Source: Candidatus Poribacteria bacterium
GTDB taxonomy: Bacteria > Poribacteria > WGA-4E > PCPOR2b
Direction of reading: 5' to 3'
NCBI GenBank assembly: GCA_965223985.1
Contig: OZ245030.1
Coordinates: forward strand, 3,151,720-3,215,719
Length of the DNA stretch: 64,000 nucleotides
A program made the translations under genes and the position numbers. The notes under the pieces were generated by a model. The model made no database searches and was not told the origin of the DNA. It was given only the letters and a program-made list of their open reading frames with translations. Each line of letters begins with the position of its first letter. The first letter of the stretch is position 1. Below are positions 31,932 through 56,610 of the stretch, in pieces.

Positions 31932-32094
31932 TTTAAACGTCCGGGAAACGGACCGGTGAATGCCAACGCTAAGGACGATTGGAACAAGAAAAGCCGAATG
32001 CGCTATTCGGAAATTGGAGCGGAGTATTGTGTTTGGTTATGTGTTTGGTTGCCGGAGGTTTCAAAAGCGTTGGGTTTCGCTATCTCCAGCGAGT

Positions 32095-33300: not shown

Positions 33301-33334
33301 ATTGATTTTTGGCGCGGCGGTAGTGCATGGAGGT

Positions 33335-33400
33335 CGCACCATATATATACTGTATGTTTTTCGTTTGTTAGGTTGGGTTAAGATCAACCCAACCTACAAA
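33335..33400. repeat. REP-like elements
   Basis: ttaggttgggttaagatcaacccaacctacaaaacttc. Confidence 0.5.
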
Positions 33401-33404
33401 ACTT

Positions 33405-34313: not shown

Positions 34314-34339
34314 GATTTGCTATGTCTGTGTGTTTAAAC

Positions 34340-34800: not shown

Positions 34801-34856
34801 TGCGCGGAATATTATGCCATATTTTAAGGACATATACCAACGAAAACCACAAAGAG

Positions 34857-38260: not shown

Positions 38261-38510
38261 TTACAGTCTATAAAAAAAGGGGTGAATTACGAAACAAGAA
38301 TAATACGTTTTATATGAATTGGGGGAGGATGTCAAGGCGGGGGGATTTTATGATTTTTTTATGAAACCGGATTCGGGGGATTGCGTATTTTTGGGTACGA
38401 TGTCAGGTTTAGGATCTCGTTGTCGATTTCGGCAACTGGGTCATGCAGAGAAACCAAGTTTCTGACAAAAACTCGGTTTCCGGTATTCCGTGAAACCTGC
38501 GAAATAAGCA

Positions 38511-38546
38511 TTGACAGATGTTAAAATCTGTTGTACTATACAGCAG
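38511..38546 (+). promoter_or_regulatory. Near-consensus sigma-70 promoter P1 upstream of giant gene 1
   Basis: TTGACA, 17 nt, TACTAT (ttgacagatgttaaaatctgttgtactat). Confidence 0.5.
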
Positions 38547-38601
38547 GTTTCCGCGATGGATGCCGGGGACGAAAACCGCGAAACATGTCGGAAGAAAAGT
38601 C

Positions 38602-38636
38602 TTGACAAATTGCGGAATCTGTTATATTATGGTATT
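38602..38636 (+). promoter_or_regulatory. Near-consensus sigma-70 promoter P2 upstream of giant gene 1
   Basis: TTGACA, 17 nt, TATTAT (ttgacaaattgcggaatctgttatattat); leaves a ~350-nt leader before the ATG at 38990. Confidence 0.5.
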
Positions 38637-38817
38637 GTGTTGCGGCAGGATTGCGCGGCGAATATGTCTCGCGTTCGGTCTGCCGGCACGACTTACGGCT
38701 TCATTCTAGACAGCTATTCTCTAAGGGGATCAACAAATGAAACCCTCCAGAGACACGTTTTGAGTGAGGACAACATTTCAGTCAGTGTGTGGAGGGTGTT
38801 TCAACCCTCTCGAGTGA

Positions 38818-38860
38818 GTCCCGGAACCCGATGTGAGCGGTTTCGGGGTTTTGTTGATTC
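38818..38860 (+). promoter_or_regulatory. Leader hairpin with a motif shared with the giant gene 2 leader, followed by a U-run (possible attenuator)
   Basis: cccggaacccgatgtgagcggtttcgggg then ttttgttg; the motif CCG(A/G)AACCCG(C)ATGTGAGC(C/G)G also occurs at 46416-46436. Confidence 0.35.
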
Positions 38861-38989
38861 TGTTATGATTTAGGAAAGGAACAACTACCAATTATGGATA
38901 GTTCAACTAAGGCTTGCGAATCTGGCAAGCGAAACAAAATCAAATTCAATCCTTCAACATACAAACATGCAAGGAGGAAACATACAGTC

Positions 38990-41900
38990 ATGTTGAGTAG
39001 AATTTCGAAAATGAGTGTTTTCGGTATCGTTGCGCTCATGCTCGTTCTCGGGCTGGCGTCGGACGATGCGCAGGGACGGGATCCGGCAGCTGGAACATAC
39101 GTGGTAACAATGCAAACAGAACCATCTGTGCTGCGCGCAGCAGACACAGCTACGGTGACGTTTACCCTCACTGTCGACCTTCGGGAAAACAAGTCTACTC
39201 AAGACCCAATCCCGGAGGATCAGGCTAACGCTGATACGGCGGAGCGTACGGTCACCATTAACATTCCGGGAGGGTCGACAGGGTGGTCGCCCAACCCGGT
39301 TGCGTTATCCGGAGAGACTGCGGTGGACCCGGGCGAGGTGAGTTTCGCTAAAACTACTGTTATCACCGACAACACTCTCGCGTGGATTTCCGGGTCTAAC
39401 GCACGGAAGCTGAATATCAAAATTGTCGCAGGAATTGACGGTAATGGTGTATATACCATCGTATACGCAGCGGCGACTGTGCCTAACCGCAAAGGCGATA
39501 GCTACAGATTTTTAATTGACAACGCAGACACCAAAGACATTCCGTATAGCGTTGATTACGCGACGAGCGGATCGGGAACGGTCACGATGAGTCCGTACAG
39601 CCCGTTGGACGCGATTGTTGGCGGCGATGCTGATGATAAAAACGCTTGGAACGGCAAATATGTTTTCAATAGCAAGACGGCGTTAAGACCGTTGAAGTTT
39701 ACTTACAAAGCGGCGGGTTCTATGCCAAAGGATTCAACCGTTTCAATAGTTATGACGGGTGGATTCAGCCTTCATGGAAAGAGCAGTTCCGTAATTTCCG
39801 TGAGCGGTTCCGGTTCTCCAGAACTTTCTACTCCCGTAGATACCGTTGTAGTAGATGAAAGTACTACGGTAGTCGCTACAGTGAAGGCAGAGGGCGGGCT
39901 GGGAGCCGGCCAGTCGATAGCCATAACCATTAGGGAGCTTGTGATGCCGGAGGTCGTAGCGGCAGCCGATGCCCCGGATACGGATAATACCATTACAGTG
40001 ACTTCTACGTCGGGTACTACGAACTTTCAAGACGATGCCCGCCCGGTTGCTATTGACAATGCTGCTGGAGATGTCGACAAAGGTTTATTCGAGTTCTACA
40101 CGACTGCAGCGCCCGGGACCGGTGAAATGACGATTAATTCTGGCGGCGACCCGATTCAAAACATGCGCGTCGTGGAAGGCACTGACCTCGGGACATTGGT
40201 ATTTGGAATTACGGGCACGGACGGTATGGGACCGGACGCCAAATTTCAGATTAAGGTTCCGGGCGCCCCTTGGCCCGAGCCTATTAAGGCGTCCGGCACG
40301 ATTGGCGTTGTTGCCGATTCGGAAGCCGCCGGACACACGGCGAATGCGGAGATTGGCACTGGCGGTGCGGCTCGCACACTCAGCGGAAGCCTTACAACTA
40401 ATACACTTCAATCTGGTACAAATAATCCCGAGGCTAATGCAAATTTGAACGATACTGATAACGGCGGGATTACGTACCGAGCCGGCGCGATATCGGTACA
40501 CGGCAAGCATGAGTTCATGCTTTTGACCAGTTCCGGTCCGCACGGCGCCACATTGAAAGAGAGGACCGGCGGGGACGGGGCTGACGCGTACCCCCGGTAC
40601 ATTGAAGTCACCGCGAAGCACGAAAGCGGTACGTTCGTCGTTAGAGAGGGCGGATCGCCGTTAGTGCAGTCAAAACCCGCGAACGAGCACACGCTCCAGT
40701 TAGTCTTTAAAGCCACTGGCTACATGCCGGCAGGGATGGTTGTGTTTAGGTTCCCGGATAGATGGAAAAGTCCTCGCCGTGACGTCGCTCCGCCGTTTGA
40801 AGTGGGAGAGGTGAGGTTTAGCAATAACGCGACGTTTATTGTCAACACCGACGGGACCATCACTGCGACGGGGGACTGGCGAGATGAGGAAATTGTAGTT
40901 ACCTACAGAGGCATGGTTCCGGGCGAGGCGGGTACCCCGCCCGAGTCACACACTTTTACCGTGGATGCATCATCGTTCGGAGGTGATGCTAGCTTCCCGG
41001 CCCCGGCGGCCCGACCGGCTGCTTATTCCCATACGATTGGTCCCAATCTCGCGGCGGATGGCAGCGGCACACTCGCGATTGAGCCGAAGAATGCGAATGC
41101 CGGCGAGACGATTAATTTGAATATAACTTACACAGCCGCGGGCACGATGGAAGATGGATCAGTTGTTGAGGTTACCATCCCCGAAGGCTGGCCTGATCTT
41201 GATGCGCCTGGCACATCAGTCGAGATCGGCGCAGAGGGCATCGTGGCAACCTTGAATGAGTCGAAGAGGACGCTGACCGCTACAACTGTTGATGATATGG
41301 TCACTGATTCCAAACTCGTGTTCAACGTCACGGGCGTTACAGCGCCGGCTGTCGGCAGAGGTTACCAGTTCACCGCGCAATCAAAATCGCACGGAGAACT
41401 AAAGAGCCTTTCGTCAAGGCAAATCTCCGGTGCAGTCATCAATATCAGCAACGTGGCTGCTGGTTCCGCCCTGCTTACGCTAGTGAGGGAAGACGGAACG
41501 ATGGCGGAATCTGCCGAACCCCTGGATTCGTTTGAAACGGCCAAAATCACTTTTACGGTTGGCTTGGCGATGCAACCCGGGGCGGAGGTTAGGGTCACGG
41601 TTCCGGATGGCTGGACGAATGAACCTTTCCAGGACAACGGCATGCCGCGTACGAGCGGTGAGGTTACGCTTGAAGGGAAGGCGGATCTTAGCGTCGAGGG
41701 AAGCGTGCTGATCGCCAAGGCGAACGCTCAGATTAACCCTGGCGAAACAGTGACGTTCACCTACCATAAGCCGACCGCGCCTGAAGGCGAAACAACATCG
41801 TCTTTCGATACACAGGCGTCAATTGTTGAAGGCGGGGGTTTACTGGCGGTTGCAAATCAGCAAACAACTGTGGTCGTTAGAAGCAAGGTCACCGCGTTGA

Positions 41901-44900
41901 CGCTTACCGCCGAATCGGCGACGAGCGTGTTCGTAGGCGATCCGGTCAAACTCACCGTTAGCTCGGATGCGCGTGCTCCGGTTCGCGGTCTTGCGGTAAC
42001 GTTAGCGACCGATCCGGCTGATACAGGGATGTTCTCCCTGACCGAAGACGGGACAGCCACCACTTCGGTGACGATTGAGGATTCGGCTACTACGATGTCC
42101 ACCACGTTTTATTACATAGGCCCAAGTTCCATTGATACGGCATCTGTCGATGTCGAGTTGACGGCGACGGCTATGGTGGATGGCGAAGCCGTTGCATCTG
42201 ATCCCGTGGAAGTTAATGTCAGGTCCACGATTAGCATGCTGCAGGTTAACGGCATGCATGATGATCCGGAACCGGTGGAGGTTGGTGCCGCAATTACGGT
42301 GACAGCGATCGGTAAAGACGGCAGAGCCACCGTAACGGTAACTGACGCTGAAGAAGAGGCGGTCGAGTCACTAACAAATCTTGGACTTGATGTCGACTCC
42401 GATGCTACTGACGTACCGGCAGGTAGTGTTGCTTACAAGCGTAAAATTGAACTGCCGGACGATCTTGCCGAAGGCGATTACACCGTAACCGTGACTATTG
42501 ACGGCGTTTGGTTGCCAATAGAGATCAGTGTGGTGGCAGCCAGAGCACAGGTTACCGAATTGACGCTCACCGCGTCAGCGGATAATTTCTTCGCGGGCGA
42601 GTCAATCACAGTCACTGTTGCATCGGATGCTCGTGCACCCGTTGACGGTCTTGAGGTGACATTGTCGACAGATCCCGCAGATTCGGGAACGTTCTCCGAT
42701 CCCGAAAGCGAGGAGACCCTCAAGGGAGGGATGGTGACGATTGAGGATGCTGCGGATTCAATGTCTGCAGATGTTAATTACACCAACTCTGCGAGGGGGA
42801 CTTTCATGCTGACGGCGACAGCTATGGTTGATGGCGAGGCCGTTACATCTGACCCGTTGGAAGTTACGGTCAACCCCACGATTACCGTTCAGGTTAACGG
42901 CATGGACGCACCGGAAGCGGTGTTGCCCGGCGCCACAATTAGTGTGACGGCGAGCGGTAAAGCAGGCGGAGGCACCGTAATGGTAACCGACGCTGAAGGC
43001 GAAGCAGTCGAGTCATTAACAGGGCTTGGACTTAATGTCGACGCCGATGCTGCTGACGTTCCCGAAGGCAGCGTTGCCTACATGCGCGACATTGAACTGC
43101 CCGCGGATATTGCTGACGGCACTTACACAGTTACCGTGACAATTGGCAGCGAGTCGGTGCCAGTGATGTTGGAGGTCATGACACCCACAGAACCGGTCAC
43201 CGCTATCGCGATTGTACCGGATCCGACCAGCGTGTTTATCGGCGAGGACATTGCCGTCTCCGTGACGCTGTGGAGCGGTGCCGAAGAAGGGGCTGCCTCG
43301 GCAGCTATGGTCATCAACCTGACGGATGGCGAAGCCGGCGGTAGTTTCACCGATACCGAAGGCAATGCTATCACTTCGGTCACTATAGCCGTTGGAGGTT
43401 TCGACGCGTCTGCGAAATATAGCAATGCCAGCAGAGGCGAAATCACGCTGACCGCGACGGCAGCCGATGAGGCGTTGGAACTTGAGCCGGCAACCGCCGA
43501 TGTCACGGTCAAGCCCTCGATTTACAATTTTGAGGTTAACGGCACGGACGAGCTAGGCCCGCTGACGGCTGGCGTCACAATTACTGTGTCGGCGACCGGA
43601 AAAGAAGGTAAAGCCACCGTAACGGTAACTGACGCGGACGGCGAAGGGGTTGTGCCATCGAAAGGGCTTACAGGACTTGATGAAGAGCCCGATGAAGAGG
43701 GCAACGTTGATTACACGCGTAAATTTGACCTACCGGTCGTTCTTGCCGATGGCATTTACACAGTTACGGTTACCATTGCCGGCGAGACTGCCGCAATGGC
43801 AATCGAAATCATAAACGACCAATCAAAACCGGCGTTGAGCAACCAGAAGGTATTGCCCGACACGGTAGCGAGCGGCAGTGTGATTACGCTTAGAATCGAC
43901 GTGAGTTCTAATGTGCCTAATCCCGAGTTGTCAGTGATGGCGGATGTCAGCGAGATTGATGCCGACCAAGCCGCTGTTCAGTTGACGAAACTGCCCGGGA
44001 CGGAGAGCACCTATGCCAACATCTACGTGGTCAAAAACAGCGACCCGCAAGACGATGGCGAGAAGACCATCACGTTCATGGCGACTGATAGGATTGGCGG
44101 CGCAAGCGAAATGACTGTGTCCACGTCCTTGAAGAACGACGTTACGCCTCCGGTGCTGAGCGATCCGACCGCTATGCCTTCACCAGTGGTGAACGGTATG
44201 GACGTTACCATTTCGGTTAGCAGTGAATCCGGTCTCACGGTCACGGCAGATGCTTCCGAAATCGGCGGCGGCATGGTGACGCTGACCGAGGGTACGGTTG
44301 ACGACGGTATGGATGCCAACGGCAACGGTAATGGTATGGATGCCAACGGCAACGGTAATGGCATGGATGCCAACGGCAACGGTAATGGTATGGATGCCAA
44401 CGGCAACGGTAATGGCATGGATGCCAACGGTAACGGTAATGGCATGGATGAAGATATGGTCGGCACGGGCATGTATAGCAGCGACCCGATCACAGTCGCC
44501 GTTACTGAAGGTGGCGATCAGACCATCACCGTCAAGGCGACCGATGCCTCTGGTAACGAGGCTACCATAGACGTAACCGTCACGGTTGAGGTGCACGAGG
44601 TGACAAGCGTTACTTTCGTTCGCACGGGCGATACGGTTACGGTAACCACGATGGGCACCGCTGGATTGAAAGCGGAGTTCAGCGTCTTCAATGAAGCTAT
44701 GAAGATTATCGGTGAGAAGGCGATGACGGAATCGGATGATGGCGGAAGCTATACAGGCAGTTTCATCATTGTTGTAGACGCCCATCCCGCTGGTGAGTAT
44801 TGGATTTCTAGCAGCGTGGGTACTGCTGCCAGTATGACCGCAGAAGGTGCACTCACGATCGACCACGGGGCGCATTTCACCCTGTCAATCGGCGCGGGTA

Positions 44901-46102
44901 CGCATATAATCCATATCCCGTTAGATGTTAAGCAGATTAACGGCGAAGATGCGTTGATTGACACCGTCGGCGACCTATACGATGCGCTCGGCGAAGCGGT
45001 CAACTACATCATTACGGTCGGCGACGACGGTGGATGGAAGACTTACCTCGGCGATATGAGCGCGGGCACCGCAGCGGACGCGGCAATCGGCGACGATACC
45101 GGTTTGATTGTGGTGATGTCCGACGCTAAGACGCTTGAACTCGTTGGCGATGCGCTAGGTACCGCCGGCGCTTCACAAATTAACATTGACGTGGGGAACA
45201 ACCTCGTCGGTGTACCGCTTGATCCGGTGGTGGATATGATGATTAGCGCCGCGCTGGTCGAAGGTGTTAGTTCAATCTCGGTCTCCAAAGCCGATGGAAT
45301 GGGATTCCACACGATTAGGGAACCCGGCGACGACGGCGACGGTCCTGTCATAGGCGGCGTCGGCTATCTAGTTTCCTACATTGGAGCGGAACCAGCCAGC
45401 ATCCCGATATTCGGTTCAGCATGGGAGAACGACGGATCGGTTTCGGCAGCTCCTGCAATCGCCTTCAGCGGTTCGCAGACGCCGGTGCTGTATGTTGAGG
45501 GCGGCGTTATGGACGAGTTCGACATGTTGTCACGAGTTCCTGAACTCCGTGTCACTGTAAAGAACCTGTCTACAGGCGCTTCGCTCGACACCGTTCTCGG
45601 AACGGAGCAGTCTGCGACAGCGTACAGCGGTACGTTTGTTGAATTGAGCCGCCACGCAGCGAAGGCTGGCGATGTGCTGGAGATAGTAGCGCATTCACCG
45701 AACCCGTACGTTGGTGTTCGACCGGTTCAGCAGATTGTTGTTAGCGCGGAAGAGGTGTTGACGAGCCGTATCAGCTTGCCCGACCTGGAAGTCTACGAGA
45801 TTCCGTCGGAGAGCGAGCTGTTGGCTAACTACCCGAATCCGTTTAACCCTGAAACGTGGATTCCGTACCGGTTAGCGAAAGCTGCCGAAGTGACGTTGGA
45901 TATTTATGACACCAACGGACGCTTGGTACGGACCATTGATATCGGCTTCAAACCAGCCGCTGTGTACGAATCACGTGCATCAGCGATTTACTGGGATGGC
46001 CGCAACAACTACGGTGAACGCGTTGCCAGTGGCACGTACTTCTATCACTTAACTGCGGGCGATGATTATGCATCAACTCGCAGAATGGTGATCCTGAAGT
46101 AA
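38990..46102 (+). CDS. Giant secreted repeat protein (2370 aa) with Ig-like repeat modules and a T9SS-type C-terminal sorting domain
   Basis: AAGGAGG RBS then the ATG at 38990 (12-nt spacing) and signal peptide MLSRISKMSVFGIVALMLVLGLA. Four ~210-aa internal repeat modules (TALTLTAESATSVFVGDPVKLTVSSDARAPV... / TELTLTASADNFFAGESITVTVASDARAPV...). C-terminal CTD NYPNPFNPETWIPYRL...LDIYDTNGRLVRTI...WDGRNNYGERVASGTYFYHLTAG...MVILK. Confidence 0.85.
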   Translation: MLSRISKMSVFGIVALMLVLGLASDDAQGRDPAAGTYVVTMQTEPSVLRAADTATVTFTLTVDLRENKSTQDPIPEDQANADTAERTVTINIPGGSTGWSPNPVALSGETAVDPGEVSFAKTTVITDNTLAWISGSNARKLNIKIVAGIDGNGVYTIVYAAATVPNRKGDSYRFLIDNADTKDIPYSVDYATSGSGTVTMSPYSPLDAIVGGDADDKNAWNGKYVFNSKTALRPLKFTYKAAGSMPKDSTVSIVMTGGFSLHGKSSSVISVSGSGSPELSTPVDTVVVDESTTVVATVKAEGGLGAGQSIAITIRELVMPEVVAAADAPDTDNTITVTSTSGTTNFQDDARPVAIDNAAGDVDKGLFEFYTTAAPGTGEMTINSGGDPIQNMRVVEGTDLGTLVFGITGTDGMGPDAKFQIKVPGAPWPEPIKASGTIGVVADSEAAGHTANAEIGTGGAARTLSGSLTTNTLQSGTNNPEANANLNDTDNGGITYRAGAISVHGKHEFMLLTSSGPHGATLKERTGGDGADAYPRYIEVTAKHESGTFVVREGGSPLVQSKPANEHTLQLVFKATGYMPAGMVVFRFPDRWKSPRRDVAPPFEVGEVRFSNNATFIVNTDGTITATGDWRDEEIVVTYRGMVPGEAGTPPESHTFTVDASSFGGDASFPAPAARPAAYSHTIGPNLAADGSGTLAIEPKNANAGETINLNITYTAAGTMEDGSVVEVTIPEGWPDLDAPGTSVEIGAEGIVATLNESKRTLTATTVDDMVTDSKLVFNVTGVTAPAVGRGYQFTAQSKSHGELKSLSSRQISGAVINISNVAAGSALLTLVREDGTMAESAEPLDSFETAKITFTVGLAMQPGAEVRVTVPDGWTNEPFQDNGMPRTSGEVTLEGKADLSVEGSVLIAKANAQINPGETVTFTYHKPTAPEGETTSSFDTQASIVEGGGLLAVANQQTTVVVRSKVTALTLTAESATSVFVGDPVKLTVSSDARAPVRGLAVTLATDPADTGMFSLTEDGTATTSVTIEDSATTMSTTFYYIGPSSIDTASVDVELTATAMVDGEAVASDPVEVNVRSTISMLQVNGMHDDPEPVEVGAAITVTAIGKDGRATVTVTDAEEEAVESLTNLGLDVDSDATDVPAGSVAYKRKIELPDDLAEGDYTVTVTIDGVWLPIEISVVAARAQVTELTLTASADNFFAGESITVTVASDARAPVDGLEVTLSTDPADSGTFSDPESEETLKGGMVTIEDAADSMSADVNYTNSARGTFMLTATAMVDGEAVTSDPLEVTVNPTITVQVNGMDAPEAVLPGATISVTASGKAGGGTVMVTDAEGEAVESLTGLGLNVDADAADVPEGSVAYMRDIELPADIADGTYTVTVTIGSESVPVMLEVMTPTEPVTAIAIVPDPTSVFIGEDIAVSVTLWSGAEEGAASAAMVINLTDGEAGGSFTDTEGNAITSVTIAVGGFDASAKYSNASRGEITLTATAADEALELEPATADVTVKPSIYNFEVNGTDELGPLTAGVTITVSATGKEGKATVTVTDADGEGVVPSKGLTGLDEEPDEEGNVDYTRKFDLPVVLADGIYTVTVTIAGETAAMAIEIINDQSKPALSNQKVLPDTVASGSVITLRIDVSSNVPNPELSVMADVSEIDADQAAVQLTKLPGTESTYANIYVVKNSDPQDDGEKTITFMATDRIGGASEMTVSTSLKNDVTPPVLSDPTAMPSPVVNGMDVTISVSSESGLTVTADASEIGGGMVTLTEGTVDDGMDANGNGNGMDANGNGNGMDANGNGNGMDANGNGNGMDANGNGNGMDEDMVGTGMYSSDPITVAVTEGGDQTITVKATDASGNEATIDVTVTVEVHEVTSVTFVRTGDTVTVTTMGTAGLKAEFSVFNEAMKIIGEKAMTESDDGGSYTGSFIIVVDAHPAGEYWISSSVGTAASMTAEGALTIDHGAHFTLSIGAGTHIIHIPLDVKQINGEDALIDTVGDLYDALGEAVNYIITVGDDGGWKTYLGDMSAGTAADAAIGDDTGLIVVMSDAKTLELVGDALGTAGASQINIDVGNNLVGVPLDPVVDMMISAALVEGVSSISVSKADGMGFHTIREPGDDGDGPVIGGVGYLVSYIGAEPASIPIFGSAWENDGSVSAAPAIAFSGSQTPVLYVEGGVMDEFDMLSRVPELRVTVKNLSTGASLDTVLGTEQSATAYSGTFVELSRHAAKAGDVLEIVAHSPNPYVGVRPVQQIVVSAEEVLTSRISLPDLEVYEIPSESELLANYPNPFNPETWIPYRLAKAAEVTLDIYDTNGRLVRTIDIGFKPAAVYESRASAIYWDGRNNYGERVASGTYFYHLTAGDDYASTRRMVILK
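44306..44440 (+). repeat. Five near-identical tandem copies of a 27-bp unit (third-position T/C alternation) inside giant gene 1, encoding (MDANGNGNG)x5
   Basis: gg(t/c)atggatgccaacggcaacggtaat x5, in frame. Confidence 0.8.
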
Positions 46103-46469: not shown

Positions 46470-49400
46470 GTGTTTAACATCATGAGTAAGGGAAAACTCG
46501 TTTGGTTTCTGATTTTGGTTACACTTGCGAGTGGTTTGATGATGAGCGTAGCGCAGTCGGTCCACGCCCAATCGGTGAGCTTGTTCATATTGAATGGTAC
46601 GCTCACGGATGCGGATGGCGTTGCGCTGGTAGGGTACACCGTGGAGGCGCCAATTGCTGAAGAAAGCACATTTGGGAGCGGCGTATCTATAACAGACGAA
46701 CAAGGAAATTACTCGATCGAGTATAACGACTTGAGCGGAAGAGTCAGCGTTGGCGACTCAATTGAGGTAATTATCAAAGACCCTGACGGGAACGTTGTAG
46801 GGGAAACGTCGTATACCGTTACTTCTGCGGATATATCGCCTCGAATTGGACGGGCGACGCACGATATCGCAATTCAGATGTCAGGGCTGACGCTTGATTT
46901 GATTAACGTTCAGTTGCCTGCGGATGGCGAATCGACGGCGGAAATAACCGTTTCGATCGAGTCGGGCGATGGGCCGGTCATCGGTGACACGGTGACAATA
47001 ACGGCTGACATGGGCAGCGTCGGCGAGGTTACGGATAACGGCGACGGGACGTATACGGCTGTGTATACGGCGCCCGCGTTGGTTATTAATGAACCGGCGA
47101 CGGATACGATTACGGTGAGTTCTGACACAACAGGCGATTCGGTAACCGCGGTAATAACGTTGGAGCCGGTTCCGACGGACATTAGAGTATCGGTCGAGCC
47201 GAGCGCATTTATAGCGGGCTCGGGCGAGACTGGCGCCGTTTCGATTACAGTGAACCGCGGCGGCAACGCTGTGGTGGACGCAGACATTTCATTGGTAGTG
47301 AGACGCGCGGATGGCGGTGCCGACAGCGGCGCGGCTACTGATGTGACGAACAACGGTGACGGCACGTACAGCGCGACATTTACGGCTCCGAACACCGCGG
47401 GACAGATTGATTTTTCCGCAACGGACGCAGTTTCCGGCGCGAGCGGGATGGCGTCAGTTAATGTGAAGGCGGGACCTGCGGCGGCAATTTCGGTGACGGC
47501 AGCGCCCACGTCAGTTTCGAGCAACGGACGCGCAGTAATCACTGCAGCGGTCGCGGATGCATCGGGTAACGGTGTCGGCGGATTGACGCTTAGCCGTACG
47601 GCAGAGAGCGGCACGGTCGGCGAATTCAGCGAAGGGTCTACAGTTGGGAGTTACAGCGCGGCATATACCGCGGGTACGGTTGAGGCGGAAGGAGGGGATA
47701 CCGTAACCGTTAGCGTCGACGACCTATCCGGTCAGGTGACGATTAACCTTACACCGGTTCCGCCGAAGGCAGTAGAAATTCTTGTAATCACAGGCACAGT
47801 GAACAAGCAAGACGGTACGGGACCCGTCAGCGGGGTGAATGTAGAGGTTACAGTCGGCGACATGACGCAGCCACCGGCGCAGACGGACAGCAATGGAAAC
47901 TACACCGTCACCTTCTTCACTCCGGGCGGCGTTGCGGCACGCGAAGGCGAAAGCGTTACTGTTGTTGTCACGGACGACGCCGGCGAGGAACGCGGACGGG
48001 ACGAATCGGTATTGACGCGAGAGGAGCTAGGCGAGGGGAATTCCGCGGATATTGAGCGCAATGTGAATACCGATATTTTGGCGAGAACCACGTCGTTGGT
48101 GGTGACCGGTTCGGTGTTCCGCGAAGAGAGCGAGGTGCCGATTGACGACGTGTTTGAGATTACAGTGATGAACACGACGCGCGGGACGGAAATGTCCGGT
48201 ATGACGGACGAGAACGGAATGTATGTTCTCACCTTCTTCGGCACAGACGTTGTTGCTGAGACGGGAGACGAGATAGTAGTGACGGCTTCGAGAGAGGGAA
48301 GCGAATGGAGCAGTCCCCCGCATTCGTTGTCTTCGGAAGACGTTGAAGCGGGCAGAGCGATGGTGAACGTACCGACCGACATCAAGGCGTCAGCCCTAGC
48401 GCTTGTGGTGACGGGTAAGGTTCTCTTTGACGACGGGACCATTGCAGTTGGCGCCGGTGTGACCGTAACTTCGATTAACGATGGACGCGGACTGGAAGCG
48501 ACAGGCGAGACTAATGCAGATGGGATGTATTCCGTGACCTTCTTTACAGGTGATGTCGTTGCGGAAACTGGAGACGTGATTGTCGTCACAGCCGTGCACG
48601 ACGGCGACGCGGTCGGCAGCACGGAACGTACGCTCTCATCGGCTGAAGTGGACGCACAGCGCGCGGAAGGCGTGGATGTGGTTACCAGTATAAAAGCGTC
48701 AACGACGACGTTAGCGGTGACTGGTACGGCGTACTACGAAGGCAGCATGATCCCCGTCGGCGGCGGACAAACCGTGACTGTCGTGAACAACATGAACGGG
48801 ATGGAGTCCACCGGGACAACGGAGGAAGACGGTACGTTTGTCGTTACGCTCATAGCCATTGAGGGGGTTGCCGCGGAGACGGGCGACACGCTGACCATCA
48901 CGGTGACAAGCGAAGCGGACGGCAGCGGCAGCATTGAACATACGTTATCGGCGATGCAGATTGATGCGCAGCGCGCTATGGTTGATGTTCCGACGAACAT
49001 TAAGGCGACCTCATCAACGTTCGTTGTGTCAGGTACGGCATACCTTGAAGATGGGGTAAGCGGTGCGCCCCACGATTTGACCGTTAAAGTCATGAACGAA
49101 ACGCAGGGGATCAATGCGGAAGGCGTAACCGTTCCGGGCGGCGGATACATTGTGACGTTCTTGGAGACCGATGCAGCGGCTGTGAAGACTGCGGATGAGT
49201 TGACATTCGACGTGCTTGTAATGGCGGCAGACGAGACGCCCGTCGGGGAAACTTCCGTTACGCTCTCATCGGCTGATGTGGTTGCGCAGCGGATTGACGG
49301 CATAGATATCACGACGAGCCTCAGGGCTGACCCGACCAATGAGTTTGTCGTTTACGGTACGGTTCGAGATCCGTCGGGCAACATCGTTGGGGCGGGAGTA

Positions 49401-52400
49401 AAGGTGCGCGTCACCCTCGGCGAGCAGGCTGCGAGGGAACAGGAAACCGAAGCAGACGGTTCGTATCAGGAGACCTTCTTCATGCCGGGCGAAACGGATG
49501 CGAGCGTTTACGACACCGTGGTAATTCAGGCGGTCGACCGCAGCACCGGCGATTCGGCGTTTGAATCCATGCAGTTGGCTTCGCACCACGTGTTGGCGAA
49601 GCGTCTTATGTTTAACGTGATGCTGGTTCCGGACGATGAACCCCCGGTCGCCGTGGCAGCAGTGAGCCAGCGGTTCCTTGACACCGAAGAAGTCTCGACG
49701 TTCGACGCGAGCGGTTCAACCGACAACGTCTTTATTGACACGTACGTATGGGATTACGGAGACGGCACGAGCGGCAGCGGCGCGAAAACGACGCACGCTT
49801 ACGACCGAGCGGGACTGTATGTTGTAACGCTTACGGTTACCGACCTTGCCCGAAACGCGACTACGGTCTCACGCGAAATCTTTGTGAGCACGGTACGGCT
49901 CGGCGGAATTTCAATCAACACCCGGCACGCGCGAGAGGTTCTTGACCAAATCATCGGCTTGGCAATCGCTAAGACCGACCTTGCTCAGCAGATGGGAACG
50001 GAAGCGCTCTTGCAGATGATGCGCGCTAATCCGGCGATTCAAGCGGCTGTGGCTGAAGCGATTGGCGGGGCATTACCGCCCGGCTTAATACCTATGCAGC
50101 TACTCAGGGAAAATCTGCCGCTGATTTTCGAGCAGTACGAAAACATTGACTTGGAAAACTTCGGCAACGCAGTGACCGCACGTGTCGACGCGAGCGGCGG
50201 TATCCTGGGATCAGCAACTCCGGGATTCGGCAGAGTCGTGACCGGCGAGAAGTTGGACCTCTACCTTGCGACACCGCGTGCAGATGTTGGCAGTGTCACG
50301 TTTAGGTTCGACGAAGCTACAACCGATGCGGACGAGGTCATCGACAGTCTGCCGCACACGTTCCAGTTGGAAGAGGAGCAAGCGATTCTACTGCTGCCCT
50401 CATGGCCCGGCGTGCGGGATGGAATGGACGGCGTGTTCTCAACGGTGACGTTGATGTTGGCGTCTGAAGAGTTGCCGTCGGCATACCACAATCTAATTTC
50501 GAGAAATGCCTGGTCATACCGCGAAACGAGCGATTATCAGGCTGCGTCCATGAGTCCAAGGACGATTAACGGAAAGATTGTATGGGATGTCCAAGCGGAC
50601 ATTGAACCCGGAAAGATATATTACTACTATTACGCAGTCGAACTCGCGTATCCCGTCACACTGAATTTGGGCGAGGGTCAGGAGAGCATGGAACTCTCGC
50701 AGTACGCATTGCCAGACCCGCGCAACCTTCAAATTCAGGATCGCGGCATAGCTGAGGCGGTATTCACACCCGAGCTTCAGGAAGCGATTGCACCGCTGCT
50801 GAACCCGATACTTGCGGGCATTATCAGTGGACAAGCTGTTACGTTCGAGGATGTTATCGCGAGCGTGACGCCCGAAGCGTGGGTGAACCTGTTGGGCGCA
50901 GCATTGAATTCAGCAACTCCGCTTCTTGAAGAGATTTCAATGACGATGGATACGCAGATGATTTCCGTGTTCACCGTTCCGCTGGTGAACGAAGCGCAGT
51001 CGCTCTGGCACACGAGTATTGATTTATCAGTGTTCCCGGACGGCGTTCACACAATTGATGCGAACGCGTTTGATTCGCTTGGAATTCAGATAGATAACCG
51101 ACCGGTTTTCGGTAAGACCTTCACGTTGGATCGGACTGCACCAGTTTACGATGTGTCGGCTGCACCGGCTCAGAATTCGTCGATGTATATGCGCGACGAC
51201 GGCGTATTGATTGCGACAGGATTGCCGCCCGCTGGCGAGGGCAGCCCGATGGCGACGCTTCAACTGATGTCAAGCCCGAACGGCGATGTGAGCGATGCGG
51301 CTGAAGGGTTGTACCAGATTATTCGGCACAGCGATGACGCCGTTGAACAAGCGTCACAAACTTGGGTCAACATTTTCGCGAGCGAATTGGCACCGATGTT
51401 CCAAGGGCTAACGCCTGAAGACATCACCGCATTCTTGGTTACGTTCCCGAATCTAGCGACGTTGAACGCGCCTCTGAGTTTGGACGCGCCTGGGATTGAG
51501 ACGTTCCTTCCGGAACAGATGGAGATGTTGATTCGCGGTGCTAACAGCCAGCCCGAACTGATTGTCGGAGAATACGGGCTGCGTTTCATCGCACGGGATT
51601 CCGTATTTAATATGTCAACGGATACCGCGCCGATACGGTTGAACATTGTTCCACCGGATGCGGATACCGCGATGGTTGTGCGGATATCGCTCGGCGATTG
51701 TAACGGCGACGGCGACTCAGACGACCTGTATGAGACAGGCGCTCCTGCGGACATGATTCTGTTCTCGGACACGCCGAATGTGGTGTTGACCGCAGAGATT
51801 ATGAAACAGGTTCACCCGATAACCTCAATCCTGTTCCAGTATAGGATGGGGGATGAAGGCGAATGGATGGATGTCGGTACACTTGACGCAGATATGGTCG
51901 CCGGCGCTGCTGTCGGCTCACAGTATGATGCGGCTTGGAGCATTGACAACTTGGGCGCGATGATTCAGGCAGGTATGCCGGTAATGGTTCGCGCGGTTGT
52001 CACGAATGCACTCTCCATTTCTGATACTGAGGCTGGCGAAGCTGCAATAGCGGTGAAAGACCATCCGTGCCCGATCGAAACTGAAGTTCACGACCTTGCA
52101 CACAGCGTTACCGACCGTAACCCCGACAGCAACGCGCCGCTGGGCGCGATTATGCTTCAGGCAATCACCCGCGAGCTAACCTCACCTCCTTCGATGAGCG
52201 TAGTTTTTGAGGCGCGCCGTATGCAAGGTGAGGAGTGGATGTCAGTCGGCGAAACGGCGATAGCGGATAGCGTTGTCGAAGAGTCTATCACCGATGCACT
52301 TGAAGAGGTGTTGGAGGAGGTTATCGACGGCGAGCAGACCGCAGTGTTAGTTCCGACGCGGCGTGTATGGTCGTTTGAACTTGATAGCACAACACTAGAA

Positions 52401-55400
52401 GACACAATTGCGGTGGGAGACCCCGCTGAACGCGACGTGACGTTGGACGAGAACCCTTACGTGCTTCGTGCAGCCGCAGTTGACGAGAATGGCACACGAT
52501 ACGAATCGGTGGAGGCGCTCTCGCAGAGTTTCTCGGTCGATAACATTGACGATGTACCGCCGCTCACAGGAACGGCGATTCTTCAAGTTGCGGATGCCGC
52601 AGGCGTTATTGAGGCAATCGAGAGCATCTTTACCGTCGGCGGTATCGTTGACGAGAGCGTAGATGCGCCAGTTGCGATGGTGATGTCAATGCCAATTGCG
52701 GATCCGAACACGTACAGTCGGGTCGATTTGCTGATTAACCGCCGCAATGACGACGGCAGCCTGGGAGACTCTGTGGTTGAGACGGCGTTCGAGATGGGTG
52801 AGGAGAATTACACCACCACGGCTGATGTCTCAACGCTAGAGAACGGCGCGTATCTCTTCCAAGCACTGGCAATGGACGAGGTTGGGAATCAAGAGGTACG
52901 AGATCTCGTGTTAGCGATTTCGGTTGATGTTGCGAACTTCATTCCGCCGCCCGATATCGACCTCAATGGTCAGACGGTTGAGGCAGTCACGGAAGCGTAT
53001 CCGGACGGGTTCCCAATCGCTCGGACGTACGAGCTCGCTGTGACTGGCATTGCGCTTAACGCAGGAGACATCGACGTTCTCGTTGATGGGCGTTCCGCGA
53101 ACGAATTGGGCGCACTCACGGTTACTACGGTTGAGGAAGGGGCGTCGAGCACGTTCGGGCTGGCGATTGACACTACGCTGCTTGAGGAGGGCTTGCACGC
53201 ACTGGATCTACAGGTTACGAAACGCAACGGCAGCATCACGTTTGTTCTGGCGCCGCTGTTTGTAGATAACATCGCGCCCGAGTTGGCAGTGGCTTCGCCG
53301 ATAGCGAACGACGAGGTAAGCGCGTTGCCTTCGATTCATGCAGTATATAATGACGGCGCTGGTGCGGGCATTGAGCTCTCGACAGTGTTGATGAGCATGG
53401 TTCGACTGACGCCGCCGGATATGTCGGCGGTCGAGATTGATGTGAGCCAAGTTATGACAGATTTGACCGACCTGGTCCATACCCGCCGCGATATGCTGCC
53501 GGCTGGCGTATATCGGGTGAGCGTAACGGTGTCCGATATCGTAGACAACGTTAGCAACATGTCGGTTGACTTTACGGTCGTTACGACGTTGCCGTCAGTC
53601 TCAATCCTGTCACCGATGCCGGGTCAAATCCTTGACGTATCGTCGCCGTACATCAGCGCGGTTTACACAGGCATAGGCGCAACCATCACATCGTTCACGC
53701 TTGACGGAGCTGAAGTCGATGATGCGACGATGAGCGACAATCGTTTGGAGTATACGCCTGACGCCTTGGCGGATGGCGACCATACGGCAGCGATTGCAAT
53801 CACGGATGACGAAGGCAATACGATGAGCGACACTGTGAAATTCACGGTAAGGACAGCAGATACGACGCCGCCGCTGATAACGGAGGCGAGTCCGCAAGGA
53901 GTTGTGAAATCTGCGTCCGCTACGCTGTCCGTCGCAGCCTCCGATGAAGAATCCGGGATTGGTAGCGTGTCATACGCCATTGATGACGGTGCAGCGGTTG
54001 ACGGAACGACTCGAAACGTTAGCGGTTTGGCTCCAGGAACTCACACCGTTGCTGCGGTTGTGACAAATGGCGCCGGTCTGTCGAGCACGTTCAATTGGAC
54101 GTTCACCGTTGAATTGGATACGACGCCACCTGTGATTTCGACTGTTGCGCCGCAGGGCGTTATCAAAGAAGCCTCTACCACGGTTTCAGCCGCGGTCGGC
54201 GATGAACAATCGAGTGTCACGCGAGTCACCATGTCGGTAGACGGTGCTGCGGCTAGAACCGCGTCACTACGGGATGGGCGTGTAAGCCGCGTGGTGAGCG
54301 GACTTACCCCTGGAACGCACAATATTACCGTTTCTGCGACGAGCGCTGGCGGTACTGCGACGCATACTTGGAGATTTACGGTTGAACTGGATACCACACC
54401 GCCTGTGATTACCCGTGCTAGACCGCAAGGCGTTATCACGTCAACTTCTGTAACAATTGCGGCAGTGGTGACAGATGAGGAATCTAATGTCACAAGTGTT
54501 ACGATTGCCCTTGACGGCGGCAGAGCTACAGACGTGACACCAGCAGCGAACGGCCCGGTGAACCGTAGGGTGACAGACCTGAATCCCGGTCTGCACGGCA
54601 TAGAACTCGTCGCAACAAGCGCTGGCGGCACCGCGACGCATACTTGGACGTTTAATGTTGACTTGGATACGACCCCGCCGGAGGTTTCGAGTACATCTCC
54701 GCACGGCATTGTGCGCGTGGAACAGCCGCAAATCTCTGTGGCAGCGAGCGATGACCGCGGCGGTATCCTTGCAATCGACATCACCCTTAAAGACAGCGAT
54801 GGTAAAGAGCTCAGCGGTCGAACCGCAGCAAGTTCTGACACAACTTCAGCGACCTTTACACCGTCGGGACGCCTGACGGGGGGGACGTACTCAGTTGATG
54901 CCACCGTGAAAGATAGAAGTCAGAATACGGCATCCGCGAGTTGGAGTTTTACCGTCGAGTTCGATACGGTGCCACCCAGCATCACGGTTGTCGCGCCGCA
55001 GGGCGAGTCCCGGATCGGCGAGGAACGCAGACCGATAATTACGGCGAGCTACACTGATAATGCAGCCGGTGTTGACGCGGATTCCGTGGTACTGATGCTT
55101 GACGGAAACCCGGTCGTTCCGACGGCAGTGTCCACGAGTCAGGTAGTTTACACGCCGCCCGCGGACCTCGATTTCGGTCGGCACACCGTTCGGTTGGAGG
55201 TCTCCGACCTCGCAGCGCCGAACGTGAATACGGCGATGCACGAATGGAGTTTCGTCCTTGAGGACGGTAAGGGACCTGTGTTCCGCGGCGTGCTGCGGAA
55301 TTACCCGAATCCGTTCAAGGATAAAACGAGCGTTTCCTTCACCCTTGCACGTGAATCGACAGTATCCATCGAGATTTACGACATCACGGGTCGGCTTGTC

Positions 55401-55571
55401 AGGGTCTTGGCGCAAGACGAGGTTCGAGAAGCCGGTGGTAATGAATTTCCGTGGGATGGGAAGACATCGACAGGCGAGGTGCTGGCTCGCGGCGTTTACT
55501 TCGGTCAGATAATGGTGACTAGCGAACCGACGCCAGAGTTTATTGTGGTGAGAATGGCGCTGTTGCGCTAG
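46470..55571 (+). CDS. Giant secreted repeat protein (3033 aa): Big-1-like, Cna-B/transthyretin-like, PKD and Ig-like repeats, T9SS-type C-terminal sorting domain
   Basis: GGGAGG RBS then GTG at 46470 and signal peptide. Invasin-like Ig repeats (ADGESTAEITVSIESGDG...DNGDGTYTAVYTAP). About 8 repeats of GTV..DG..V.GV.V.V..........TD.NG.Y.VTFF. A PKD domain (FDASGSTDNVFIDTYVWDYGDGTSGSG...YVVTLTVTD). Six ~95-aa Ig-like repeats (DTTPPVI...PQGVI...). C-terminal CTD NYPNPFKDKTSVSFTL...IEIYDITGRLVRVL...WDGKTSTGEVLARGVYFGQI. Confidence 0.85.
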   Translation: MFNIMSKGKLVWFLILVTLASGLMMSVAQSVHAQSVSLFILNGTLTDADGVALVGYTVEAPIAEESTFGSGVSITDEQGNYSIEYNDLSGRVSVGDSIEVIIKDPDGNVVGETSYTVTSADISPRIGRATHDIAIQMSGLTLDLINVQLPADGESTAEITVSIESGDGPVIGDTVTITADMGSVGEVTDNGDGTYTAVYTAPALVINEPATDTITVSSDTTGDSVTAVITLEPVPTDIRVSVEPSAFIAGSGETGAVSITVNRGGNAVVDADISLVVRRADGGADSGAATDVTNNGDGTYSATFTAPNTAGQIDFSATDAVSGASGMASVNVKAGPAAAISVTAAPTSVSSNGRAVITAAVADASGNGVGGLTLSRTAESGTVGEFSEGSTVGSYSAAYTAGTVEAEGGDTVTVSVDDLSGQVTINLTPVPPKAVEILVITGTVNKQDGTGPVSGVNVEVTVGDMTQPPAQTDSNGNYTVTFFTPGGVAAREGESVTVVVTDDAGEERGRDESVLTREELGEGNSADIERNVNTDILARTTSLVVTGSVFREESEVPIDDVFEITVMNTTRGTEMSGMTDENGMYVLTFFGTDVVAETGDEIVVTASREGSEWSSPPHSLSSEDVEAGRAMVNVPTDIKASALALVVTGKVLFDDGTIAVGAGVTVTSINDGRGLEATGETNADGMYSVTFFTGDVVAETGDVIVVTAVHDGDAVGSTERTLSSAEVDAQRAEGVDVVTSIKASTTTLAVTGTAYYEGSMIPVGGGQTVTVVNNMNGMESTGTTEEDGTFVVTLIAIEGVAAETGDTLTITVTSEADGSGSIEHTLSAMQIDAQRAMVDVPTNIKATSSTFVVSGTAYLEDGVSGAPHDLTVKVMNETQGINAEGVTVPGGGYIVTFLETDAAAVKTADELTFDVLVMAADETPVGETSVTLSSADVVAQRIDGIDITTSLRADPTNEFVVYGTVRDPSGNIVGAGVKVRVTLGEQAAREQETEADGSYQETFFMPGETDASVYDTVVIQAVDRSTGDSAFESMQLASHHVLAKRLMFNVMLVPDDEPPVAVAAVSQRFLDTEEVSTFDASGSTDNVFIDTYVWDYGDGTSGSGAKTTHAYDRAGLYVVTLTVTDLARNATTVSREIFVSTVRLGGISINTRHAREVLDQIIGLAIAKTDLAQQMGTEALLQMMRANPAIQAAVAEAIGGALPPGLIPMQLLRENLPLIFEQYENIDLENFGNAVTARVDASGGILGSATPGFGRVVTGEKLDLYLATPRADVGSVTFRFDEATTDADEVIDSLPHTFQLEEEQAILLLPSWPGVRDGMDGVFSTVTLMLASEELPSAYHNLISRNAWSYRETSDYQAASMSPRTINGKIVWDVQADIEPGKIYYYYYAVELAYPVTLNLGEGQESMELSQYALPDPRNLQIQDRGIAEAVFTPELQEAIAPLLNPILAGIISGQAVTFEDVIASVTPEAWVNLLGAALNSATPLLEEISMTMDTQMISVFTVPLVNEAQSLWHTSIDLSVFPDGVHTIDANAFDSLGIQIDNRPVFGKTFTLDRTAPVYDVSAAPAQNSSMYMRDDGVLIATGLPPAGEGSPMATLQLMSSPNGDVSDAAEGLYQIIRHSDDAVEQASQTWVNIFASELAPMFQGLTPEDITAFLVTFPNLATLNAPLSLDAPGIETFLPEQMEMLIRGANSQPELIVGEYGLRFIARDSVFNMSTDTAPIRLNIVPPDADTAMVVRISLGDCNGDGDSDDLYETGAPADMILFSDTPNVVLTAEIMKQVHPITSILFQYRMGDEGEWMDVGTLDADMVAGAAVGSQYDAAWSIDNLGAMIQAGMPVMVRAVVTNALSISDTEAGEAAIAVKDHPCPIETEVHDLAHSVTDRNPDSNAPLGAIMLQAITRELTSPPSMSVVFEARRMQGEEWMSVGETAIADSVVEESITDALEEVLEEVIDGEQTAVLVPTRRVWSFELDSTTLEDTIAVGDPAERDVTLDENPYVLRAAAVDENGTRYESVEALSQSFSVDNIDDVPPLTGTAILQVADAAGVIEAIESIFTVGGIVDESVDAPVAMVMSMPIADPNTYSRVDLLINRRNDDGSLGDSVVETAFEMGEENYTTTADVSTLENGAYLFQALAMDEVGNQEVRDLVLAISVDVANFIPPPDIDLNGQTVEAVTEAYPDGFPIARTYELAVTGIALNAGDIDVLVDGRSANELGALTVTTVEEGASSTFGLAIDTTLLEEGLHALDLQVTKRNGSITFVLAPLFVDNIAPELAVASPIANDEVSALPSIHAVYNDGAGAGIELSTVLMSMVRLTPPDMSAVEIDVSQVMTDLTDLVHTRRDMLPAGVYRVSVTVSDIVDNVSNMSVDFTVVTTLPSVSILSPMPGQILDVSSPYISAVYTGIGATITSFTLDGAEVDDATMSDNRLEYTPDALADGDHTAAIAITDDEGNTMSDTVKFTVRTADTTPPLITEASPQGVVKSASATLSVAASDEESGIGSVSYAIDDGAAVDGTTRNVSGLAPGTHTVAAVVTNGAGLSSTFNWTFTVELDTTPPVISTVAPQGVIKEASTTVSAAVGDEQSSVTRVTMSVDGAAARTASLRDGRVSRVVSGLTPGTHNITVSATSAGGTATHTWRFTVELDTTPPVITRARPQGVITSTSVTIAAVVTDEESNVTSVTIALDGGRATDVTPAANGPVNRRVTDLNPGLHGIELVATSAGGTATHTWTFNVDLDTTPPEVSSTSPHGIVRVEQPQISVAASDDRGGILAIDITLKDSDGKELSGRTAASSDTTSATFTPSGRLTGGTYSVDATVKDRSQNTASASWSFTVEFDTVPPSITVVAPQGESRIGEERRPIITASYTDNAAGVDADSVVLMLDGNPVVPTAVSTSQVVYTPPADLDFGRHTVRLEVSDLAAPNVNTAMHEWSFVLEDGKGPVFRGVLRNYPNPFKDKTSVSFTLARESTVSIEIYDITGRLVRVLAQDEVREAGGNEFPWDGKTSTGEVLARGVYFGQIMVTSEPTPEFIVVRMALLR

Positions 55572-55671: not shown

Positions 55672-56610
55672 ATGTTTCAAGGGAAGCACAAGTTGTTTTA
55701 TAGCGGAGTAGCGTTTATGGCGCTCTTACTCGCCATAGCGCCGATGTGTCTCGCTAGCGGCAACGCCGCCCCATATCTACGCGATGGCGTTGGCGCACGG
55801 TCGATCGGTCTAGGCGGCGCTTTCACAGCCATCGCCGACGATGCAACCTCCACAATCTGGAATCCTGCGGGCTTACCGGCGACTGAGACTCTAGATTTCA
55901 CACTGTCACGGGTGCCTATGGCGTTCGATAGCACAAAGAACTTCATGGCGATCGTAAAAGGGTTAGGCGAGAAAAGCTCGATAGGTTTTTCGTGGATGAA
56001 TGTTGGCGTTGACGATATCATGGAGGTCAGCGCGGACAACGACATCACGGGTAGACGCTTTAACTACGATTCGAATGCGTTGGCGTTATCGTTCGGACAT
56101 GCGCTGGAGAGTTTTAATCTTGGGGCGAGTGTGCGCGTGCTATCCGATGCGGTTGGACTGGATGCCTTCGATGGTGTGACGAGTTTTGGCGGCGTGGATG
56201 TGGGTATGTTGGCGCGACCCGGTACATCGTTGAGCTACGGCTTGGCGGTAAGAAATATCGGCGGTACGGTCGGTGACGAGAGCGTTCCCATAATCGTGGG
56301 TGCTGGCGTTGCGTACCATCTGTTGCAAGGGGACCGTGCGACGGTTGCAGTTGATATCGAGCACGAAATCGGCATTTTGGATGAGAGTCCGACAAGCGTT
56401 CGTATGGGTACGGAATATCGAATTGCGCGAACCTTCGCGGTACGCGGCGGTACACAGGTGTCCAAAGATCGTCAAGCTCTGTTTGTTGGGTTTGGAGTTG
56501 ACGTTGGCGCGCTCCAGCTTGATTATGCGCTAAAAGCGGGCGAACGTGCGACTCGCAGCTTGCAAGACGCCGGCGAAACGCATTATATTTCACTGTCTTA
56601 CGGTTATTAA
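55672..56610 (+). CDS. FadL-family outer-membrane beta-barrel protein, PorV/PorQ-like (T9SS-associated), paralog of the 14949-15905 gene
   Basis: Signal peptide, hatch motif GARSIGLGGAFTAIADDATSTIWNPAGL, beta-strand-rich body ending with an aromatic residue (SLSYGY). Encoded 100 nt downstream of the giant CTD cargo gene. Confidence 0.65.
   Translation: MFQGKHKLFYSGVAFMALLLAIAPMCLASGNAAPYLRDGVGARSIGLGGAFTAIADDATSTIWNPAGLPATETLDFTLSRVPMAFDSTKNFMAIVKGLGEKSSIGFSWMNVGVDDIMEVSADNDITGRRFNYDSNALALSFGHALESFNLGASVRVLSDAVGLDAFDGVTSFGGVDVGMLARPGTSLSYGLAVRNIGGTVGDESVPIIVGAGVAYHLLQGDRATVAVDIEHEIGILDESPTSVRMGTEYRIARTFAVRGGTQVSKDRQALFVGFGVDVGALQLDYALKAGERATRSLQDAGETHYISLSYGY

Follow-up and report, generated by a model that had tools for sequence, protein, structure and literature searches.

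The in-frame array of 27-bp units in giant gene 1 of the window (the whole 64,000-nucleotide stretch of Candidatus Poribacteria DNA that was analysed) is best explained, at a probability of about 0.65, as a coding minisatellite (VNTR) that lengthens one disordered loop of an Ig-like domain. Whole units or Asn-Gly (NG) pairs would be turned over in frame, with graded variation of an exposed loop. The array shows the properties of a coding minisatellite: its units are longer than 10 nt and arranged head to tail with high identity, they are in frame, and their copy number is polymorphic. The features on which this reading rests are collected in Table 1.

Table 1. Coordinates of the repeat array, of its host domain and gene, and of neighbouring genes in the window.
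Feature	Position	Strand	Basis
Giant gene 1, 2370 aa	38990..46102	+	ORF and public protein record
Signal-peptide-like N-terminus MLSRISKMSVFGIVALMLVLGLASDDAQG	38990..39076	+	read by eye
Ig-like beta-sandwich domain NDVTPPVLS...TIDVTVTVE hosting the repeat	44135..44590	+	AlphaFold2 strands, alignment invariants
Five complete 27-bp units ATGGATGCCAACGGYAACGGTAATGGY, each encoding MDANGNGNG	44309..44443	+	Tandem Repeats Finder and translation
Partial sixth unit ATGGATGA..., which runs into MDEDMVGTG	44444..44470	+	sequence
T9SS type A sorting domain / FlgD Ig-like domain, C-terminal	45830..46093	+	TIGR04183, PF13860, PF18962
Giant gene 2, 3033 aa; Invasin_D3, PKD, Big_13, Big_3_3 and a same-type C-terminal sorting domain	46470..55571	+	
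PorV/PorQ-family outer-membrane protein gene	55672..56610	+	NF033709, 102.1 bits (cut-off 90)

Structure of the repeat array

Tandem Repeats Finder detected a period of 27 bp with 5.3 copies, 96% matches and no indels (score 263) at window positions 44309–44450. The array encodes the peptide G(MDANGNGNG)x5, with a Gly before it and MDEDM (MDEDMVGTGMYSS) after it, in the reading frame of the plus-strand ORF 38894/38990–46102; each unit equals nine codons. Five near-identical 27-mers in series far exceed what could arise by chance. The sequence-only reading had described five near-identical in-frame units at 44306–44440, and this was confirmed, its interval being the same array framed 3 bases earlier (GMDANGNGN x5). 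The alternation of T and C at third codon positions, which it had also pointed out, was borne out as well: the units of the window vary at two sites only, both synonymous third-codon T/C differences. At unit position 27, units 1–5 have T, C, T, C and C, respectively, and position 15 changes from C to T in unit 5 alone. Unit 1 is thus identical to unit 3 and unit 2 to unit 4; a recent duplication of 54 bp within the array would give this pattern. Three AAYGGY (Asn-Gly) hexamers sit in each unit, which nests one repeat inside another, and the five units together hold 15 Asn-Gly dipeptides. The partial sixth unit corresponds to the unexpanded, ancestral-type loop (GMDENMAGTGMYS / GMDADMAGTGMYS) of repeat-free homologous domains. 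An Rfam scan of the whole window gave no family at the gathering threshold and nothing pointing to an RNA element at the array.

Host gene and its neighbourhood

The start codon of giant gene 1 is an ATG that follows AAGGAGG. The product from this start has a residue-for-residue match in a public protein collection, in a record from a 4.69-Mb contig, and its 90%-identity cluster consists of itself and one fragment. The N-terminus, judged by eye only, has an n/h/c layout like that of a signal peptide. At the other end of the protein, TIGR04183 was found at residues 2281–2368 of 2370 with 38.8 bits (cut-off 23), and the last ~90 residues gave 35.1 bits with PF13860 and 29.0 bits with PF18962 (cut-off 27 for both). 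The gene order from giant gene 1 to giant gene 2 was also found in related contigs. The PorV/PorQ-family gene lies directly downstream of both cargo-like genes and two genes past giant gene 1; among the window ORFs scanned, no T9SS components beyond this family, such as PorK/L/M/N, Sov/SprA or PorU, were seen. No title or abstract found in a literature search brought Poribacteria and T9SS together. Domains and neighbourhood (TIGR04183, the PorV/PorQ neighbour, and Ig-like domains resembling adhesin extenders) make the earlier label of an adhesin-like T9SS cargo a reasonable one, and the product of giant gene 1 is probably a secreted, cell-surface Ig-repeat protein. The two 180-aa ORFs that lie upstream at 34857–35399 and 32080–32622 (minus strand) share no relationship.

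Position of the repeat within the Ig-like domain

For structure prediction with AlphaFold2 we used a 320-aa stretch and 18 homologues, and obtained a mean pLDDT of 60.9. Strands were predicted at residues 81–89, 93–97 and 105–110 before a gap and at residues 169–173, 185–194 and 200–210 after it, and the 10-residue blocks that flank the gap had a mean pLDDT of ~87–88. Residues 114–166, within which the repeat occupies 116–161, had a pLDDT below 50 and lacked secondary structure. The repeat stretch is predicted to be disordered, with low pLDDT serving only as a proxy for disorder. It is placed in the loop between the strands MVTLTE and GMYSS (...NDVTPPVLSDPTAMPSPVVNGMDVTISVSSESGLTVTADASEIGGGMVTLTEGTVDDG-repeat-MDEDMVGTGMYSSDPITVAVTEGGDQTITVKATDASGNEATIDVTVTVE), and this loop has 72 residues here vs. 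~20 in repeat-free homologues. In the predicted structure the repeat is a loop insertion inside one Ig-like beta-sandwich. The array had previously been taken for a linker between domains, and this reading fails: both the AlphaFold2 model and the domain alignments show it interrupting a single Ig-like domain, between two confident strands. No Pfam family covers the repeat-bearing domain. A Foldseek search against the PDB returned tandem Ig-like domains, the best being 6xi3, the extender region of a large adhesion protein (E = 2.8e-5), and the matches include the GhpA fragments 9flw and 9flp.

Copy number at the orthologous site

A protein search over 5.8 billion sequences gave 20 clear relatives, all of them fragments from ENA metagenome assemblies, and a scan in which each species was represented by a single genome gave five loci, each in a Candidatus Poribacteria MAG, with identity of up to 61%. 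For the JGI metagenomes, none of the 170 pattern matches from a domain-alignment scan was confirmed, and a degenerate two-unit DNA pattern had no matches. Copy number was compared at seven loci with alignable flanks, those of the window and of six metagenome contigs (L001–L006) from three assemblies. The array has 5 units in the window and 5 in L001 (2x coverage), 4 in L003, 3 in L004, 7 and one 16-bp truncated unit with an 11-bp deletion in L002 (14x coverage), 9 in L006, and at least 9 in L005, where it reaches the contig end; the related contigs are of low coverage (1x–14x by name) with many frameshifts, and one or two of these counts may be wrong. A second array of 3 units is present in a paralogous upstream domain of L004. 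In L007 (Candidatus Poribacteria OZ242351.1), the nearest complete genome, there are 0 units, and the site reads EGMDENMAGTGMYSS / LTEGMDENMAGTGMYSS. The upstream flanks of L001–L004 have 92–95% identity to that of the window, and every pair of contigs diverges by at least about 3–7% in at least one flank, so that they represent distinct lineages; L003 and L004 show 99.2% identity downstream and 92.5% upstream.

Copy number differs among lineages and the units are near-identical, contrary to the uniform number and degenerate units by which the sequence-only reading would have been refuted. The near-identity of the units, together with the variation of their number between lineages, supports the proposal of the sequence-only reading that the array is a substrate for replication slippage. 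The comparison indicates an array that changes length quickly between lineages. Two of the closest contigs stay near the count of the window, as L001 equals it and L003 is within one unit, and the turnover is therefore not extreme. L002 carries five consecutive identical interior units, which we regard as a sign of very recent expansion there. L001, L002 and L003 have a GGA variant in common in their first unit, and old edge units around a homogenised centre would fit the usual pattern of a slippage array.

The sequences next to the arrays have a mosaic composition. The ~45 nt immediately upstream of the window array (GGGMVTLTEGTVDDG) are almost an exact match to the paralogous upstream domain of L004, and the next 860 nt upstream match the orthologous domain of L004 at 93%. 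The proximal flank of that orthologous domain differs (GGDAAVALDEGMMAAGGNG) and is common to L005 and L006. Such flanks suggest that paralogous domains have undergone gene conversion near the arrays.

Constraint on the unit peptide and other copies of the loop

Constraint was assessed by counting 43 clean units from eight arrays. The peptide is MDANGNGNG in 41 of them and MAANGNGNG in the remaining two. Third codon positions make up six of the seven variable nucleotide sites, and a change of an Asn codon to Asp was seen in none of the 43 units, though one transition suffices for it. The unit peptide seems to be constrained. The pattern would fit purifying selection on the peptide, homogenisation (concerted evolution) between units, or both.

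The same loop was compared in homologous domains. It is short (19–25 aa) in 13 domain instances and long (47–93 aa) in at least nine, where it is built from other units: ANGNG, MDANG, MDANGMTNG, ATANGNG, TMAGNGNG, MPAxNGNGNG and AADTT. In P0012 and P0017, units with 1, 2, 3 or 4 NG pairs stand side by side in single arrays, and this coexistence points to slippage at the 6-bp level besides that at the level of the unit.

Proposed mechanism and alternative explanations

The mechanism that we propose is that the near-identical 27-bp units, with their nested AAYGGY hexamers, would misalign in replication or recombine unequally. Whole nine-residue units or single Asn-Gly pairs would then be gained or lost while the reading frame is kept. 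The outcome would be graded length variation of a flexible, hydrophilic, surface-exposed loop and no on/off switch, and the most likely benefit would come from variation, or from mere tolerance of it, in an epitope or contact surface that is exposed to phages or to the sponge host. We lean towards loop variation that may be used rather than tolerated, as this is favoured by the recurrent Asn-Gly expansion in one loop and by variation that is nearly all synonymous.

The main competitor is an expansion without function, in which a permissive loop tolerates an Asn-Gly insert whose length drifts without effect on fitness. We consider it possible, at rather low odds. The predicted disorder of the repeat, its absence from L007 and from the 13 homologous domain instances with short loops, and the difference in unit type between lineages are all in keeping with drift. 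However, the presence of one peptide in 41 of 43 units while six synonymous sites vary, and the lack of any Asn-to-Asp change, argue against it, although homogenisation could explain part of both; moreover, this one loop has undergone at least nine independent expansions, almost all of them with Asn-Gly-rich units, whereas the other loops of the domain have undergone none. Alternatively, the loop might be a dedicated hypervariable site of a lineage-specific Ig-like family in the giant surface proteins of Poribacteria, with nested Asn-Gly repeats (6-bp AAYGGY in 15–33-bp units) selected as a means of diversifying an exposed determinant in length and sequence. This is a speculative reading that we hold to be quite unlikely; if true, the loop would be the counterpart of a CDR loop, driven by repeats, and would bear on phage or sponge-host recognition. 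The array might also be a true contingency locus, where frequent and reversible length change in a clonal population would create surface heterogeneity for selection by phage or host, and we find this unlikely. Its units are near-identical, in a tract about as pure as such tracts get, its copy number is unequal in almost every pair of related contigs, its host gene product is surface-exposed or secreted, and the 11-bp-deleted unit of L002 (14x) frameshifts the gene and, if real, would represent an 'off' allele. Yet there are just five units, the variants compared belong to separate lineages with at least about 3–7% divergence in at least one flank, and the L002 frameshift is possibly an assembly error. 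Moreover, as the 27-bp unit is a multiple of three, ordinary slippage is unable to switch expression of the gene on or off; the earlier statement that copy-number change stays in frame therefore holds for this 2370-aa gene. On/off switching was not seen, since unit gain or loss is in frame and the only irregularities, of 1–2 bp or 11 bp, occur in low-coverage contigs. We treat the deletion in L002 and the 1–2-bp irregularities of other contigs as probable errors because the assemblies are of low coverage and their genes are fragmented throughout. The array is best filed with the variable coding minisatellites of surface proteins.

Two further explanations concern the chemistry of the repeat and the reliability of the array itself. 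DxDxDG is a calcium-binding loop pattern and RTX repeats are nonapeptides with a nine-residue period. By eye, D-A-N-G-N-G in each unit resembles DxDxDG, the unit period is nine residues as in RTX, and Foldseek matches the surrounding domains best to the adhesin extender 6xi3; the repeat might thus fold or stiffen on Ca2+ like Ca2+-dependent adhesin extenders, or its regularly spaced Met might bind Cu(I). We judge such metal binding improbable. No Pfam or NCBIfam calcium-binding or RTX match was found over the region, the hydrophobic position of the RTX nonapeptide (GGxGxDxUx) is absent, and the AlphaFold2 model has no beta-roll or other structure there, so membership in the RTX or DxDxDG calcium-binding repeats was rejected. 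DxNxNG is also not a conserved property of the loop, because the unexpanded loop and the ANGNG, AADTT and TMAGNGNG units of other lineages are without it. Asn-Gly is the most deamidation-prone sequence known, and the 15 Asn-Gly dipeptides could deamidate over time to Asp/isoAsp-Gly, which would turn DANGNGNG into a DxDxDG-like, acidic, Ca2+-binding stretch. Glycosylation sequons, which are D/E-x-N-x-S/T for N-linked and D-S/T-hydrophobic for O-linked sugars, were searched for in the sequence of the array and rejected, as D-A-N-G-N has no Ser/Thr and the array lacks a D-S/T-hydrophobic motif, a pattern matched solely by the AADTT units of L009, a different lineage. We give hardly any credence to an artefact of assembly or sequencing, or to a repeat that belongs to an opposite-strand ORF. 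Long-read assemblies can miscount repeats, but this array has 135 bp, far below long-read length, and an assembly artefact specific to the window is excluded because six independent contigs from three assemblies carry the array at the orthologous position. Minus-strand ORFs of 156 and 231 aa (44023–44493 and 44180–44875) do overlap the array, but we rejected them as spurious: the plus-strand 2370-aa ORF has homologues and recognised domains, and the unit differences are almost all synonymous in the plus frame.

Comparison with known repeat systems

Classical contingency loci of Haemophilus, Neisseria and Campylobacter have units of ~1–7 nt that shift the frame or the promoter spacing and switch genes on and off at measured high rates. 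Like them, the window array is a repetitive, slippage-prone substrate in a surface-protein gene, but its unit has 27 nt and is always in frame. Giant gene 1 resembles the T9SS giant adhesins SprB of Flavobacterium and GhpA of Aureispira in its very large size, its Ig-like beta-sandwich repeats and its type A C-terminal sorting domain. It differs from them in having no family match at the sequence level outside the C-terminal domain, and in its host, which belongs to Candidatus Poribacteria and not to Bacteroidota, with the PorV/PorQ family as the sole T9SS component among the window ORFs scanned.

The Ser-Asp (SD) repeats of ClfA and SdrC/D/E are likewise in-frame, low-complexity repeats of surface proteins with polymorphic copy number. 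Their number changes reversibly without frameshift, and repeats in the middle of the array are purer than those at its ends (PMC3324548). The SD repeats form a long stalk that joins the ligand-binding region to the cell-wall anchor and have an 18-bp unit in tens to hundreds of copies, whereas the window array consists of five 27-bp units with Asn/Gly chemistry in the loop of an Ig domain, in a diderm and in a protein with a T9SS-type C-terminal domain. In adhesin minisatellites, such as those of yeast FLO1/FLO11 and similar genes, length change results in a graded and not a binary phenotype (PMC3899988). These share with the window array a unit of more than 10 nt in a cell-surface gene, but they have ~100-nt units, encode glycosylated Ser/Thr-rich stalks and are eukaryotic, and an effect of length on function was shown for them.

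Significance for Poribacteria

Taken alone, the locus is an ordinary variable coding repeat in a surface protein. If the length of the loop varies within populations, it would serve as an inexpensive marker of strains in an uncultured sponge symbiont and would mark the part of the giant protein that is under diversifying pressure. The wider lead, which is the more useful one, is that across many Poribacteria Asn/Gly-rich units of different kinds have independently expanded the same Ig-domain loop. This recurrently expanded loop is a candidate for an exposed, functionally relevant surface of the giant proteins of the symbiont.

Putative surface and secretion genes around the giant genes

The gene immediately following the two giant genes, both of which carry T9SS type A sorting domains, encodes a PorV/PorQ-family protein (see table). 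The nearest relatives of the source genome are Candidatus Poribacteria MAGs, and a full-text literature search found no paper that names Poribacteria and T9SS together in its title or abstract. Putative surface or carbohydrate-binding proteins are abundant in the window. Two DUF6785 + DUF6784 paralogues were also detected, separated by approximately 37 kb.

Features annotated in the window outside the two giant genes
Feature	Position	Strand	Details
799-aa ORF	12537-14936		weak S-layer SlpA similarity
318-aa ORF	14949-15905		weak TraF_2 match
F5/8 type C domain protein	15902-17833		adjoins the 318-aa and 799-aa ORFs
Laminin_G_3 (concanavalin-like lectin) domain proteins, three	7440-9175 and 30515-31447 (minus strand)
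DUF6785 + DUF6784 paralogues, two genes	22049-23995 and 60913-62847		~645 aa; E = 1e-147 and 4.5e-145
IS200-like Y1 transposase ORF	34857-35399	minus	PF01797, 34.9 bits; amid the repeats upstream of giant gene 1
414-bp repeat	35624-36651		2.5 copies; upstream of giant gene 1
179-bp repeat	36472-36831		2 copies; upstream of giant gene 1
394-bp repeat	36858-37639		2 copies; upstream of giant gene 1
PorV/PorQ-family outer-membrane protein gene	55672-56610		NF033709, 102 bits (cut-off 90)
Tandem array, 35-bp unit	62962-63531		intergenic; 16.3 copies, 93% matches

Repeats outside the giant genes

Upstream of giant gene 1, the gene that bears the MDANGNGNG array, lies a long, mostly non-coding stretch (~31800-38900) that is dense in repeats. 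At least 10 sites carry an element of approximately 120 bp, with 95-97% identity to a copy in L001, a related metagenome contig. The Y1 transposase ORF contains the sequence YNPVKHGLV. The repeats and this ORF may together represent a REP-element/REP-associated transposase arrangement.

A further array, with the unit ACTATCGCCTAACATCGGTGTGAAGAACTACAAAG, is located downstream of the second DUF6785/DUF6784 gene and gave no match in Rfam. The motif at the end of its unit, CTACAAAG, also recurs elsewhere in the window in short 9-bp runs, e.g., at 32165, 35812, 36226, 36820, 37235, 59347, and 60853.

Variation within giant gene 1 and its relatives

The translation of giant gene 1 reveals a module of approximately 200 aa in three diverged copies (~41900-43900; ORF residues ~1000-1650), with the pattern T/VxxLTLTA...VTLATDPAD...VNGM...TVTVTDAEEEAVESLT...YTVTVTI. 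In the related gene of metagenome contig L004, a repeat-bearing Ig domain is interleaved between such modules.

In L002, the closest relative with decent coverage (14x according to its name tag), one unit of the counterpart of the 44309-44443 array is reduced to 16 bp (ATGGTACGGTAATGGC, L002 2774-2789). The shortened unit causes a frameshift inside the array, and the gene is called as two ORFs. Possible explanations are an error in the assembly, a pseudogene, and an 'off' allele.

We compared window positions 44264-44308, in the flank of the array, with L004 1960-2003 and 3334-3411. The 45 nt directly 5′ of the window array match a paralogous domain of L004; unlike this proximal segment, the body of the array-bearing domain matches the orthologous domain of L004. 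Such a mosaic flank suggests that Ig-like domains exchange sequence around the arrays by gene conversion.
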